Positions 26,496 to 57,270 of a stretch of DNA of 64,000 nucleotides are shown here, piece by piece. Below the pieces are notes generated by a model that saw only the letters and a list, made by a program, of their open reading frames with translations, was not told the DNA's origin and ran no database searches. The stretch comes from Lama glama (taxonomy: Eukaryota), in the NCBI GenBank assembly GCA_028534125.1, contig CM052816.1, positions 19,408,001 through 19,472,000 on the forward strand, given 5' to 3'. Both the position numbers and the translations under genes were made by a program. Position 1 is the stretch's first letter, and every line of letters starts with the position of its first letter.

Positions 26496-26580
26496 GTTTT
26501 TTAATGGAAGTACTGGGATTGAACCCAGGACCTCATGCATGCTAAGTATGCACTACCCCACTGAGGTATTACCTCCTCCA
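26496..26580 (-). mobile_element. tRNA-derived SINE (vic-1-like)
   Basis: Reverse strand has a degenerate A box and B box (ggttcaatccc) and cttagcatgcatgaggtcctgg. Confidence 0.75.
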
Positions 26581-45353: not shown

Positions 45354-45772
45354 TAGAGATTATCATACTAAGCGAAGTAAGCCAGAAAAAGACAAATACC
45401 ATATGCTATCACTTATATGTGGAATCTTAAAAAATGACATGAATGAATTTATTTGTGAAATCAAAACAGACTCACAGACGTAGAAAACAAACTTATAGTT
45501 ACCAGTGGGGAAGGACATAGGAAGAGATAAACTGGGAGGTTGAGATTTATAGATACTAATTACTATATATAAAACAGATAAACAACAAGTTTCTCCTGTA
45601 TAGAACAGGGAACTATATTCAATATCTTATACTAACCTATAATGAAAAACAATATGAAAACAAATATATGTACATACATGTATGACTGAAACATTATGCT
45701 GTACACCAGAAATTGACACATTGTAAACTGACTATACTTCGATTAAAAATTTTTAATTTAATTTTTAAAAAA
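45354..45772 (+). mobile_element. 5'-truncated L1 3' end inserted in a MIR
   Basis: L1 3' UTR motifs; 18-bp TSD aagattaaatgagRtaat at 45336-45353 and 45773-45790 (1 mismatch). Confidence 0.88.
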
Positions 45773-45926
45773 AAGATTAAATGAGATAATATAGGTAAGA
45801 ATCAATCTGCTACAAGGAGGATGCAATCGCTGGGTGAGAGTGTTGGCAATATTACATCATCGGGGCTGCTGAGCAGATCAGCCCTATGCCCTGCACTCCC
45901 AGAACACAGCGTCCCCGGATACTTAC

Positions 45927-46166
45927 CCTCATGCCGCGGCTGTAGGTGATAATCTTAAGAATGCGCAGGGACTGAATGCCTTGAGCAATGTTTATGTAGG
46001 GGTAGTATATGCCCATGATCTTGGGGATAATGTGGGGGATGAAGACAATGAAGAAAATGACCACGTCCAGCAGGTTGTAGCCATCCTCCCAGAAGCCGAT
46101 GGGGTCTGCGTAGAGCTTGATGATGAACTCGGAGATATATATTGCCAGAAAGAAGAACTCTGAGGC
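45927..46166 (-). CDS. CATSPER3: CATSPER3 exon 3 (240 nt; S2-S4)
   Basis: ccacag|GCC...AGG|gtaagt; ASEFFFLAIYISEFIIKLYADPIGFWEDGYNLLDVVIFFIVFIPHIIPKIMGIYYPYINIAQGIQSLRILKIITYSRGMR; exons 3-8 join without stops; exon numbering assumes the 8-exon human structure. Confidence 0.95.
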
Positions 46167-47139
46167 CTGTGGGGTGGCAAAGTTTGAAGAGTCAGACCAA
46201 GCTGCATATCTTCTCCCTGCCTGGGTCCCCCAGTCAGGTATGTATGTGTACCCCTAAATCACCCACATTAGACAGAAACCAAGCAGAGTCCATGGAATCA
46301 GACTGTGTCTGATTCGCTTCTACGTCTTCCCTATCCTGTGGCCCTAACCCTAGGGTTTGAACCAGGGCGCTTGGAAACCACTGACAGACAGGATGACTAC
46401 CTACGCATCTCAGGCAACCTGCATGTGTTTCCCAAGAGAAGACCCCAAGAATCTAATATCCAGACTTTGGGGAATATAGTTGAACTACTGAGATATCCAC
46501 TTGTCTTTCTCTTTCTGGGTTATATCACTTAGTCTGATAATCTCTAATTATCTCATTTAATCTTAAAACAGTGGTGATGTGAACTGATTTACATTTTTAA
46601 GAGATCTTGGTGGAACAGAGACTATGGGGGAGCTGGCAGGAATAGCAACTGGGAGGCAGGTTAGGGAGGAGGCCATAGATGGTAGAAGAATGACTTTTAG
46701 CAGTCATCCGTACAAGAGATGAGGCTGGAGTGCAATGCATCGGGTGAGAGTGCAGAGAGGAAAAGAAAAGGACAGATTCTGGATGGGCTGTGTAGGCAGC
46801 AATGAGAGGACTTGCTGATGGACTCGGGGATGCACAGCAAAGAGAGAAGGCAAGGAAGACTCTGGTGTTTCAGACAGAGCAATTGGGTAAACGTGGATGC
46901 TTTTAAGTGAGATGAGTTTGGGGTGGGTTGAAGTGGGGCTAGAGAGAGTTTCTGCAGGGAAATAAAAAGGCTTTTGAGATATACCACCTTTTAAATATAT
47001 GTCAGATGCTGTCACTGGAAATTGTAGCTCCAGCCACAACTATTCATTTGGATAGCATGAGGGTAGTGTTACTTGTCCGATATACTTGTATTTGAGATCT
47101 CCACATGGCAACCATTTACATATACTTTTATGTTTGTTA

Positions 47140-47865: not shown

Positions 47866-50800
47866 TTTTTTTAACATTTTTTTTACTGAGTTATAGTCAT
47901 TTTAAAATGTTGTGTCAAATTCCAGTTTAGAGCACAATTTTTCAGTTATACATGAGCATACATATATTCATTGTCACATTTTTTCTTGCTGTGAGCTACC
48001 ACAAGATCTTGTATATAATTCCGTGTGCTCTACAGTATAATCTTGTTTATCTATTCTACATTTTGAAATCTCAGTCTGTCCCTTCCCAGCCCCCGCCTCC
48101 TTGGCAACCACAAGTTTGTATTCTATGTCTGTGAGTCTGTTTCTGTTTTGTATTTATGTTCCTTTTTCTTTTGATTCCACATATGAGCGATCTCATATGG
48201 TATTTTTCTTTCTCTTTCTGGCTTACTTCACTTAGAATGACACTCTCCAGGAACATCCGTTTTGCTGCAAATGGCATTATGTTGTCGGTTTTTATGGCTG
48301 AATAGTATTCCATTGTATAAATACACCACTTCTTCTTTATCCAGTCATCTGTTGATGGACATTTAGGCTGCTTCCATGTCTTGGCTATTGTAAATAGTGC
48401 TGCTATGAACATTGGGGTGCAGGTGTCATTTTGAAGTAGGGTTCCTTCTGGATATATGCCCAGGAGCGGGANNNNNNNNNNNNNNNNNNNNNNNNNNNNN
48501 NNNNNNNNNNNNNNNNNNNNNNNNNNNNNNNNNNNNNNNNNNNNNNNNNNNNNNNNNNNNNNNNNNNNNNNNNNNNNNNNNNNNNNNNNNNNNNNNNNNN
48601 NNNNNNNNNNNNNNNNNNNNNNNNNNNNNNNNNNNNNNNNNNNNNNNNNNNNNNNNNNNNNNNNNNNNNNNNNNNNNNNNNNNNNNNNNNNNNNNNNNNN
48701 NNNNNNNNNNNNNNNNNNNNNNNNNNNNNNNNNNNNNNNNNNNNNNNNNNNNNNNNNNNNNNNNNNNNNNNNNNNNNNNNNNNNNNNNNNNNNNNNNNNN
48801 NNNNNNNNNNNNNNNNNNNNNNNNNNNNNNNNNNNNNNNNNNNNNNNNNNNNNNNNNNNNNNNNNNNNNNNNNNNNNNNNNNNNNNNNNNNNNNNNNNNN
48901 NNNNNNNNNNNNNNNNNNNNNNNNNNNNNNNNNNNNNNNNNNNNNNNNNNNNNNNNNNNNNNNNNNNNNNNAGGGAGTGTTCTAGCTTCGTTGATTTACA
49001 TGCTGCTGTCCAGTTTTCCCAACACCATTTGCTGAAGAGACTGTTTTTATTCCATTGTATATTCTTGCCTCCTTTGTTGAAGATCAGTTGACCAAAAGTT
49101 TGTGGGTTCATTTCTGGGCTCTCTATTCTGTTCCATTGGTCCATGTGTCTGTTTTTGTACCAATACCATGCCATCTTGGTTACTGTAGCTCTGTAGTATT
49201 GTCTGAAGTCTGGGAAAGTTATTCCTCCAGCCTCTTTTTCTTCAGTAATGCTTTGGCAATTCTAGGTCTTTTGTGGTTCCATACAAATTTTACTACAATT
49301 GTTCTAGTTCTGTGAAATATGTCCTGGGTAATTTGATAGGGATTGCATTAAACCCGTAGATTGCCTTGGGCAGTATGACCATTTTAACAATATTGATTCT
49401 TCCAATCCAGGAGCATAGGATAACTTTCCATTTTTTTAATTCTTCTTTTATTTCCTTAATCAATGTTTTATAATTTTCCATGTATAACTCTTTCACCTCC
49501 TTGGTTAGATTTATTCCTAGGTATTTGATTACTTTGGGTGCTATTGTAAAGGGGATTATTTCTTTACTTTCTTTTTCTGTTGAGTCATCATTAGTGTAAA
49601 GAAATGCAACTGATTTTTGAATGTTAATCTTGTAACCTGCTACCTTGCTGAATTCTTCGATTAGTTCTAGTAGTTTTTGTGTGGACCTTTTAGGGTTTTC
49701 TATATATAGTATCATGTCATCTGCATACAGTGACACTTTTATCTCTTCTTTTCCAATTTGGATCCCTTTTATTTCTCTCTCTTGCCTGATTGCTGTGGCT
49801 AGGACTTCCAAGACTATGTTGAATAGCAGTGGTGATAGTGGGCAGCCTTGTCTTGTCGCAGATTTTAGTGGGAAGCTTTTGAGTTTTTCACCGTTGAGTA
49901 CTATGCTGGCTGTAGGCTTATCATATATAGCTTTTATTATGCTGAGATATGTTCCCTCTACACCCACTTTGGTGAGAATTTTTATCATAAATGGGTGTTG
50001 AATTTTATCAAAAGCTTTTTCTGCATCTATTGAGATGATCATGTGGCTTTTGTCCTTTCTCTTGTTGATGTGATGTATTACATTGATTGATTAGCATATG
50101 TTGAACCATCCTTGTGTCCCTGGGATGAACCCCACTTGATCATGATGTATAATCTTTTTTATGTGCTGTTGGATTCTATTTGCTAGTATTTTGGTAAGAA
50201 TTTTTGCATTACGTCCATCAGTGATATTGGTCTGTAATTCTCTTTTTTGGTGGTGTCTTTGCCTGGTTTTGGTTTCAGGGTGATGGTGGCGTCATAGAAT
50301 GAGTTTGGGAGTATTCCCTCTTTTTCAGTCTTCTGGAAGAGTTTGAGAAGGACTGGTAGGAGTTCTTCTTTGTATGTTTGGTAGAATTCCCCGGTGAAGC
50401 TGTCTGGTCCTGGACTTTTATTTGTAGGGAGGTTTTTTTATTGCTATTTCGATTTCATTTTTAGTGATCAGTTTGTTCAAGTGGTCAGTTTCTTCTTGAC
50501 TCAGTCTTGGTGGACTGTATGTTTCCAGAAACTTGTCCATCTCCTCTAGGTTAGCCATTTTGGTTCCATATAGTTTTTCATAATATTCTCATATGATATT
50601 CTGTATTTCTATGTTATTTGTTGTAATTTCTCCATTTTCCTTTCTTATTTTGCTTATTTGTGCTCTTTTTTCTTCTTTGTGAGTTTAGCCAGAAGTTTGT
50701 CAATTTTATTTACTCTTTCAAAAAACCAGCTTTTGGTTTGATTGATTTTTTCTTTTTTTTTCAATCTCTATTTTATTCATTTCATCCCTGATCTTTATTA

Positions 50801-53130: not shown

Positions 53131-53660
53131 AAACCCTCGTACACTGTTGCTGGAAATGTAATGTTACAGCTACTATGGAGGACAGTATGGAGGTTCCTTA
53201 AAAAACTAAAAATAGAGTTACTATATGATCCAGCAATCCCATCCCTGGGTATATATCTGGAGAAAAATATAATTCAAAAAAACAACATGCACCTCAATGC
53301 TCACAGCAGCACTATTTACAATAGCCAAGACATGGAAACAACCTAAATGTCCATCAACAGATGACTGCATAAAGAAGTTGTGGTATATATAAAAAATGGA
53401 ATACTGCTCAGCCATAAAAAATAAAATAAAATAATACCATTTGCAGCAACATGGATGGACCCAGAGATCATCATTCTAAGTGAAGTAATCCACAAAGAGA
53501 AAGAAAAATGCCATATGATACCACTTAAATGTGGAATCTGAAAAAAAAAGACACAAATAAACTTATTTACAAAACCGAAACACTCACAGACATAGAAAAC
53601 AAACTTACAGTTATTGGGGTAAAGGGGATGGGAAGGGATAAATTGGGAGTTCAAAATTTG
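53131..53660 (+). mobile_element. L1 3' region (5'-truncated), followed by an older L1M 3' end to about 53825
   Basis: ccctcgtacactgttg...tatgatccagcaatccc...caacctaaatgtccatcaacagatg...gggaagggataaattgggagtt. Confidence 0.85.
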
Positions 53661-53974: not shown

Positions 53975-54564
53975 TGACACCTGCACCCCAATGTTCATAG
54001 CAGCACTATTTACAATAGCCAAAACATGGAAACAGCCTAAATGTCCATCAACAGGTGACTGGATAAAGAAGATGTGGTATATTTATACAATGGAATTCTA
54101 TTCAGCCATAAAAACCGACAACATAATGCCATTTGCAGCAAAACGGATGTTCCTGGAGAGTGTCATTCTAAGTGAAGTAAGCCAGAAAGAGAAAGAAAAA
54201 TACCATATGAGATCGCTCATATGTGGAATCTAAAAAACAAAAATAAAAACAAACAAACAAACAAAAACAAAGCATAAATACAGGACAGAAATAGACTCAC
54301 AGAGAATACAGACTTGTGGTTACCAGGGGGGTGGAGGGTGGGAAGGGATAGACTGGGATTTTAAAATTGTAGAATAGATAAACAAGATTACACTGTATAG
54401 CACACACGGAAATATACACAAAATGTTATGATAACTCACAGAGAAAAAAATGTGACAATGAGTGTGTATATGTCCATGAATGACTGAAAAATTGTGCTGA
54501 ACACTGGAATTTGACACAACATAGTAAAATGATTATAAATCAATAAAAAATGTTAAAAAAAAAA
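53975..54564 (+). mobile_element. Young 5'-truncated L1 3' end
   Basis: L1 C-terminus and 3' UTR, AATAAA plus A tail; 13-bp TSD taaaagcatctcc at 53962-53974 and 54565-54577 at a TTTT/AAAA endonuclease site. Confidence 0.93.
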
Positions 54565-55520: not shown

Positions 55521-55639
55521 TTTGGGGGAGGCAGCAATTAGGTTTATTTTTGTTTTTTTTAAATGGAGGTACTGGGAATTGAACCCAGAACCTCATGAAT
55601 GCGAAGCATGTGCTCTACCACTGAGCTACACCCACCCCC
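55521..55639 (-). mobile_element. tRNA-derived camelid SINE (vic-1-like), full head
   Basis: Reverse reads GGGGTGGGTGTAGCTCAGTGGTAGAGCACATGC...GGTTCAATTCCCAGTACCTCCATTTAAAA...AATAAACCTAATTGC. Confidence 0.88.
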
Positions 55640-56123
55640 AGAATTGCATTGGTTTAATAAATTAATTTGGGGGGAAACTGTACCTTAAAGAACCTGAGCT
55701 TTTCTATCCATGATCGGATATATCATTCCATTTCTTTATGTTTTCTTTAATGACATTTACACATTGTTTTCTCCTTAAAGATCACGAATCTTTTGTTAGA
55801 TTTGTCTCTAAGTACTTTTTGTATTTTATTAGAAGTGCCACTTTTTTGTTGCTGACATATTAAATATATTTTAATTTATTAATCATATATCCACCAAATT
55901 TGCTTGATTTTATTAATTACTTGTTTACTAACTATATTAATTAGTAGTAACTTTTATTAATTATTTTTTTCAGATTCTTTTGGGATTTATATGCAGAAAT
56001 CACATCCCTTGTAAATAAAATGACAGTGTTTTTAAACCTTCTAATACTTAATGCTTTTTATTTCTTTTTCTTCTGTTATACGTTGGCTAAGACTCTAATA
56101 CAAATTTTGTCAATAATAACAGT

Positions 56124-56491
56124 GGGGGGGGGGCAGAGCCAAGATGGCAGAGTAAAGACTCACAGCTCACCCTCTCCCACAAATATACCAAGAACTGTAT
56201 CTACAAACCCACTGAATCACACAGAACACCTACTGAACTCTGGCAGAGTGACTCTCATTTTGAAATACAGGAGGATTCTCACAAAATCCAATAAACAACA
56301 AGTTCATGCTGCATAGCACAGGGAACCATATTCAATATCTTGCAGTAACCTATGGTGAAGAAGAATATGAGAACGAACGTATGTATGTTCCTATGTGACT
56401 GAAGCATTGTGTTGTACACCAGAAATTGACACACTGTAAACTGACTATACTTCAATAAAAATATAATGATAATGATGATGATAATAATAAT
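56124..56491 (+). mobile_element. Bipartite mini-L1: L1 5' UTR start joined directly to the L1 3' UTR end, with (TGA/TAA)n tail
   Basis: G-run plus CAAGATGGC YY1 box and cetartiodactyl-type L1 5' UTR to 56290, then ataaacaacaag...cttcaataaaa 3' end; TSD aataataaca at 56112-56121 and 56492-56501. Confidence 0.75.
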
Positions 56492-56910
56492 AATAATAAC
56501 AATAACTGGACTACACTTCTAAAGGGAATACTGTTAAAGTTTCACTACTGTATGTGAATTCTGATACAGGTTTTTCATAAGGTATCCTTTATTGGTTAAA
56601 AAAAATTCTATTACTAGTTTGCTAAACTTTTATCATGAAAGATACTCATAAACTTTTTTCTGTATCTCTTGAAATAATCTTATCAGGGTTTTTTCTCCTT
56701 TAATATTTTAAGATGTTTAATATGTAGATTTTTCTAACACTTGCTTTCCTAGAAAAACCCAACTTGGCAATGCTAAATTATCTTTTTCATTTATTTTTTA
56801 AAAAATTCAATTTCCTCATATTCTGTTTCTGATTTTTGTGTCCAAGTTCATGATTGGGTGTAATTTCCTTTTTCATACTGTCCTTGTCTAGTTTAGGCAT
56901 AAAGGTTATA

Positions 56911-57270
56911 CAGTTGTCCCTCAGTATCCCCAGGGAATTAGTTCTGGGACCCACAAAGGATACTAAAACCCAAGGATGCTCAAGTCCTTTATATAAAACA
57001 GCATAGTATTTGCATATAACCTATGCACAACCTTCTTGCAGACTTTAAATCATCTCTAGATTACTTATAGTAATCTAATACTAATATAATGTAAATGACG
57101 TGTAAATAGTACAAAATACAATGTAAACACTATGTAGACGTTGCCAGGCAAGCAGCAAATTCAAATTTTGCTGTTTGAGACTTTCTGGATTTTCTTTTTC
57201 TTTAAATATTTTCGACCCCTGATTAGTTGAATTTGCAGATTTGGAACCACTGATCACAGAGGGGTCACAG
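56911..57270 (+). mobile_element. MER2/MER2B non-autonomous TcMar-Tigger DNA transposon
   Basis: Starts cagttgtccctcagtatcc; internal gatgctcaagtcc...tttgcatataacct...tttaaatcatctctagattactta; flanked by TA dinucleotides. Confidence 0.85.

Follow-up and report, generated by a model that had tools for sequence, protein, structure and literature searches.

A multi-copy mini-L1 joins the 5′ end of L1 to its 3′ end, most likely by splicing

In the stretch of Lama glama DNA analyzed here (64,000 nt, referred to as the window), the start of an L1 is followed directly by the end of an L1. This arrangement raises the question of how the two ends came to be joined, and whether the joint is peculiar to this locus. 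An initial annotation, made from the sequence alone, interpreted the element as a spliced integrant or a SINE-like L1 derivative. This interpretation is supported by junction copies at other loci, by an AG on the acceptor side and by a GT in outgroup heads. The mini-L1 is real and multi-copy, and it is most likely spliced.

Anatomy of the mini-L1 and its target site

The mini-L1 is a plus-strand insert of ∼340 nt (56124–56459, followed by a tail), in which an L1 5′ end is joined to an L1 3′ end and the coding middle is absent. The head (56124–56290) comprises the first 167 nt of the L1 5′UTR, as judged from its start motif, from outgroup heads and from repeat depth, and would represent exon 1 of a spliced RNA. 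It opens with a run of 10 Gs at the L1 5′ terminus (56124–56133), followed by the YY1 box of the L1 transcription start (56140–56148). According to the accessible text of PMC5381506, where this motif is described, a G-run and a YY1 box form the start of almost all mammalian L1s. At 56290/56291 the head meets the last 169 nt of the L1 3′UTR (56291–56459; the putative exon 2), which show 69–83% identity to seven L1 3′ ends of the window and close with a poly(A) signal (56454–56459). A decayed A-rich tail of 32 nt (56460–56491), now consisting of short ATG and AAT repeats, completes the element. Both parts are L1 in sense order, given the L1 start motif in the head and the match of the other part to seven L1 3′ ends. 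All features that the initial annotation had listed for this fusion were recovered at the places it gave.

Six-frame translation of 56124–56461 yielded no long frame and no remaining ORF, in agreement with the earlier statement that both ORFs are absent. The ATG of the YY1 box opens a three-codon frame (56143–56154), whose stop lies ∼135 nt before the joint. Given this short frame, the spliced mini-L1 RNA could be subject to nonsense-mediated decay.

A Pol III SINE with a tRNA, 7SL or 5S head was considered and rejected, because inside the element Rfam (E up to 1) gave no match and ARAGORN gave no tRNA call. Folding of the mini-L1 RNA was no better than chance (z 0.01; 52 of 100 shuffles as good).

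The insert is bounded by a TSD on the plus strand, and the 12-nt 5′ copy (56112–56123) matches the 3′ copy (56492–56503) at 11 of 12 positions. This short TSD had been noted before with the caveat of low complexity. The low complexity is real, but it does not explain the TSD, because only 2 of 15,038 control 12-mers (from the AT-rich 48–64 kb part of the window, compared with the 60 nt downstream of the poly(A) signal) matched as well. The TSD and the A-rich tail are marks of target-primed reverse transcription, and the insertion site is only a loose variant of the endonuclease consensus (consensus as given in the accessible part of PMC5860796).

Both flanks appear to be relics of the ORF2 region of an older L1, which runs antisense to the insert. 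The left flank (55858–56123, minus strand) aligned to window positions 49561–49830 with a local alignment score of 111.5, which is weak evidence by comparison with the best of 200 shuffles (101.5). The right flank (56517–56798, minus strand) continues the same relic and aligned to 49863–50170 with a score of 126.5 (best shuffle 96.5). Aligned separately to the ORF2 region of the window, the flanks are in the same register and collinear within ∼19 nt. Therefore, the mini-L1 sits in this older relic as one insert.

The junction in other copies

We aligned the contigs of four public runs to positions 55950–56700 at 80% likeness. Among the 32 pieces listed (with 46,640 further pieces), 11 bridge the joint at 56290/56291 and extend for 31 letters or more to either side of it. 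These bridging contigs are 12–18% different from the window and, by place and differences, form at least eight distinct junction-bridging sets among the 32 pieces listed. Records 2, 10, and 26 represent one locus in three organisms, and records 16 and 32 represent another single locus. Four of the bridging contigs among the 32 pieces listed have different flanks of their own; other upstream DNA extends over 221, 303, and 1513 letters in records 11, 26, and 29, and other downstream DNA over 323 letters in record 8. The other copies begin aligning at 56129–56140. One junction is thus directly observed at many independent loci. The initial annotation had proposed to look for copies with this junction and distinct TSDs, and diverged, differently flanked copies with the junction are present across the four runs.

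These copies bear on the simplest account of the locus, namely that one full-length L1 inserted here and later lost its middle, or that the fusion is an assembly artefact. Compatible with this account, the locus is not covered from end to end by any of the 32 pieces listed, and all four runs leave the right flank without cover; the filter can, however, cause such holes. Against it, the junction is common to many unrelated loci, and for this reason we rejected a single-copy deletion at this site. Furthermore, records 1, 9, and 25 (from organisms A, B, and D) pass directly from left flank to head with no other letters in between, and 14 of the 24 runs listed, from four coded organisms, contain 0.84–0.88 of the words of 55700–57000. 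The left flank-to-head contigs and the shared words indicate that the insertion at this site is common to the organisms. Taken with the shared junction, they make a local deletion or artefact extremely improbable.

The depth of the head is ∼500–1000 times that of the flank. At the junction, the summed contig depth, which is not equal to copy number, is ∼290–470 times that of the unique flank, or 230–380 times without the contigs having G at 56291. Junction depth amounts to ∼0.4–0.8 of the depth inside the head and, in run X2, to ∼1/15 to 1/300 of the 3′-end depth. We roughly estimate the family at a few hundred copies that account for a large share of the heads, and roughly every second copy of this 5′ end seems to belong to a mini-L1. 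The family is old, probably on the order of tens of millions of years, because the head of the window copy contains no CpG and the copies differ by 12–18%. In shape, it is a many-copy element without an ORF that retains nothing of a LINE but the two ends.

The acceptor side of the joint

By BLAST, 56291–56461 hits seven L1 3′ ends within the window, the best being 45578–45748 (83%). An AG at 45576–45577 lies directly 5′ of the base homologous to 56291, where the initial annotation had pointed it out, and an AG immediately precedes the join position in all seven window L1 3′ ends. The same AG directly precedes 56291 in the loose-end consensus of all four runs (161–321 loose ends/contigs per run).

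The acceptor region has no polypyrimidine tract, a caveat that had been correctly raised before. Searched with the branch-point heptamer motif in general use, the two window L1 ends closest to the mini-L1 (at 45.5 and 63 kb) contain a branch-point-like heptamer with its A at position −19; a third window end has a weaker one at −29, and the other four have none.

Two of these four L1 3′ ends, near 48.0 kb (minus strand) and 54.4 kb (plus strand), are 84% alike and are both missing ∼23 nt immediately 5′ of the acceptor AG. The missing letters include the branch-point-like site of the copies closest to the mini-L1. Judged from these two copies only, such ends could mark an L1 lineage that has lost the splice.

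The donor side of the joint

In the host copies, the consensus before the joint is CG. G at 56290 accounts for 48–65% of the depth in the four runs (54, 52, 44, and 31 contigs per run), and T at 56289 for about a quarter to a third. The A found at 56290 in the window is a decayed CpG. Host head-only contigs (records 4, 5, and 12) stop aligning at 56287–56288 and run on into 58–85 other letters. Thus, unspliced heads exist and diverge at the joint. G at 56291, present in 10–23% of the depth, may stem from unspliced heads or may simply be a variant first base; one of the seven window L1 ends also has G there.

The head itself has no second copy in the window, and its motif at 56221–56238 occurs once in the window at up to three mismatches (0 in 100 shuffles). 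The unspliced state was read from outgroup heads. A 17-letter head motif was found at 40 loci of metagenome contigs, of which nine are homologous heads from another mammal (L003, L007, L008, L015, L018, L026, L035, L038, and L040; mammalian host DNA within the metagenome collection). The other 31 loci, which have no homology beyond the motif, were discarded as chance matches. Six of the nine outgroup heads show ∼70% identity over ∼110 nt, whereas the BLAST hits of the other three cover the motif only. All nine continue for 0.6–1.2 kb into GC-rich sequence that is absent from the mini-L1. No outgroup contig reaches ORF1, so it is the start motif and the anatomy that tie the head to an L1 body. 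In one outgroup head (L038), ∼40 nt around the shared motif are duplicated in tandem. The head motif gave 0 loci in viral contigs, 0 loci in prokaryote genomes and no match in plasmids; a host-specific gapped head pattern gave 0 loci in metagenomes.

In the column right after 56290, eight of the nine outgroup heads have GT and one has GC, in a register that comes from a MAFFT alignment through ∼35 poorly conserved nt (the BLAST hits end at 56247–56257). The initial annotation had pointed to a G|GTAGG near this offset in related L1 5′UTRs. Because the donor-like GTAGG/GTAAG is conserved in these heads, other mammals may make the same mini-L1.

Origin of the joint

With GT read from the outgroup heads and AG from the window and the runs, the joint would take the form G|GT…AG|A. 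Two random breakpoints would carry a GT and an AG ∼0.3% of the time. Breakpoint microhomology, which had been named earlier as a mark against splicing, is limited to one G, as expected at G|GT…AG|. Overall, the joint was very probably made by splicing.

The alternative would be a joint without splicing, in which a single internal deletion or a jump of the reverse transcriptase made a master mini-L1 that carried GT and AG by chance and was then amplified, or in which a template jump guided by RNA structure recurred. The missing polypyrimidine tract fits this proposal, as does the fact that the donor GT was read from outgroup heads and not from host heads; moreover, other bipartite LINEs are stated to have arisen by internal deletion (PMC5786205, accessible text). 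The low chance expectation for GT and AG and the single letter of microhomology both speak against it, and a structure-guided jump is at odds with an RNA that folds no better than its shuffles. We regard an origin without splicing as unlikely.

Propagation of the family

How a spliced RNA would give rise to so many copies is a separate matter. We envisage that an older L1 subfamily supplied a full-length copy whose own promoter, at the 5′ end, drove its transcription, and that the spliceosome would sometimes have joined the GT donor ∼167 nt into the 5′UTR to the AG acceptor, which lies 169 nt upstream of the poly(A) site. A single intron of ∼6 kb, a size deduced from the ordinary length of L1, would thereby have been removed together with the rest of the promoter and both ORFs. 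The resulting 340-nt polyadenylated RNA, without coding capacity, would have been copied in trans by ORF2p of intact L1s and inserted by target-primed reverse transcription, giving a TSD, a tail, and a complete 5′ end. Repeated many times, this process would yield a few hundred copies with one junction, most of them first-generation dead ends.

Repeated production and copying of the spliced RNA, with copies that are mostly such dead ends, is the best explanation of the data, and we hold it with moderate confidence. It is favored by the 0.6–1.2 kb of GC-rich 5′UTR that the outgroup heads possess and the mini-L1 is missing; human SpIREs without such 5′UTR sequence lose promoter activity (PMC5860796, accessible text). 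The low share of the junction in the 3′-end depth of run X2 also counts for dead ends. The abundance of mini-L1s relative to unspliced 5′ ends would follow from their length, as copying reaches the end of a 340-nt RNA while most long L1 copies are 5′-truncated. Because mini-L1s are a small share of all 3′ ends, their high ratio to heads can stem from this truncation. The absent polypyrimidine tract and the four window ends without a branch-like heptamer argue against efficient splicing, and secondary amplification would account equally well for so many copies despite a weak acceptor.

Such amplification is possible, albeit with a lower probability. The family would then have been born by splicing and have propagated itself: the 167-nt head, with its G-run and YY1 box, would be transcribed, and ORF2p would amplify an ORF-less, SINE-like Pol II family. 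One dominant junction, a weak acceptor and an intact transcription start motif are in line with this proposal, as is a junction depth of ∼0.4–0.8 of the head depth versus ∼2% for human SpIREs. This is how ORF-less bipartite elements of RTE, Ingi, Vingi, and R2 spread (PMC5786205, accessible text), and under a host promoter a human SpIRE became mobile again (10.1101/2025.02.02.635956, accessible text). However, most of the 5′UTR is gone from the mini-L1, and 5′ truncation of long copies could explain the ratio alone. In addition, the variants at 56289–56290 look like independent CpG decay rather than shared diagnostic changes.

The two proposals differ in their consequences. Even as dead ends, the mini-L1s extend L1 splicing to the loss of the whole coding body. 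In number, they can compete with unspliced 5′ ends and would therefore inflate counts of “full-length” L1s that are based on 5′UTR hits. The set of copies also constitutes a natural test of cis preference, as it reflects copying in trans of an RNA with L1 ends and no ORF. If the family did propagate itself, it would represent a route by which splicing turns a LINE of the L1 clade into a SINE-like element, for which the accessible text of PMC5786205 lists no example. A self-amplifying Pol II mini-L1 would also counter the view of spliced L1 copies as dead ends, and other L1 subfamilies of this genome, by losing the branch-point region, could then have escaped from the mini-L1.

Comparison with known L1 derivatives and bipartite LINEs

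Human SpIREs account for 131 of 6,609 full-length L1s, or ∼2% (Larson et al. 2018, PMC5860796). Like them, the mini-L1 is most likely a retrocopy of L1 RNA, here joining a putative 5′UTR donor (GT in the outgroup heads) to an internal AG, and it shares with them the TSD, the tail, the intact 5′ end and many copies with one junction (PMC5860796). Mobilization in trans, as for ORF-defective SpIREs (PMC5860796), would apply to the mini-L1 as well. The SpIREs described in the accessible part of that article splice within the 5′UTR or into ORF1 and retain ORF2. In contrast, the mini-L1 has its acceptor in the 3′UTR, has lost both ORFs, is only 340 nt long, and would have a far larger intron. It also seems to make up roughly half of its 5′-end copies rather than ∼2%. 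The mini-L1 hence works like a SpIRE but is outside the SpIRE classes described there.

Spliced L1 RNAs such as SpORF2 use 5′UTR donors and distant internal acceptors, also in testis (PMC2896524). SpORF2, however, retains ORF2, and the acceptors given in the accessible text of that article (1837 and 1920) include none in the 3′UTR. Like SpORF2-type RNAs and the processed pseudogenes made by L1, the mini-L1 would derive from a spliced RNA copied in trans by L1. HAL1 (half-L1) is likewise a non-autonomous L1 derivative, but it retains ORF1 (PMC5786205, accessible text), whereas the mini-L1 has no ORF.

In having only LINE ends and no ORF, the mini-L1 resembles Bov-A, RTESINE1/2, MAR4, WALLSI3, RIME, NARTc, derivatives of Vingi-1_EE and derivatives of R2 (PMC5786205). 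Pol II transcription and mobilization in trans are presumed for these bipartite LINEs and for the mini-L1 alike. In the accessible part of the article, ORF-less bipartite elements are reported only from RTE, Ingi, Vingi, and R2, where they arose by internal deletion (Kojima 2018, PMC5786205). The mini-L1 differs from them in belonging to the L1 clade and in having its joint at splice signals.

A literature search, which covered articles rather than the Repbase and Dfam libraries, found no description of an L1 family spliced from 5′UTR to 3′UTR; the family may already have a library name. An alpaca Repbase name beginning with “LSINE” may exist, but the literature search gave no confirmation. 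In the supplement of PMC6726744, the first 30 of 138 “_Vpa” rows contain only L1-1/2/3_Vpa and LTR names.

Genomic context of the window

Window positions 45882–46184 (minus strand) are an exon of CATSPER3, which matches residues 80–167 of 7eeb_C with an E of 1e−27. The mini-L1 is located ∼10 kb upstream of this exon on the opposite strand and probably lies in an intron.

A run of N at ∼48460–48980, inside the ORF2 end of an antisense L1, marks an assembly gap. Two pieces of L1 ORF2 end and 3′UTR (53285–53580 and 53979–54274) have the same direction, are ∼693 nt apart and 79–89% alike, and represent nested or adjacent insertions. Finally, tRNA-Ala-like elements are found at 55564–55635 and 26505–26576, both on the minus strand, and the copy at 26.5 kb is inside an L1 3′ end. 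They are probably copies of a tRNA-derived SINE, which may be Vic-1.
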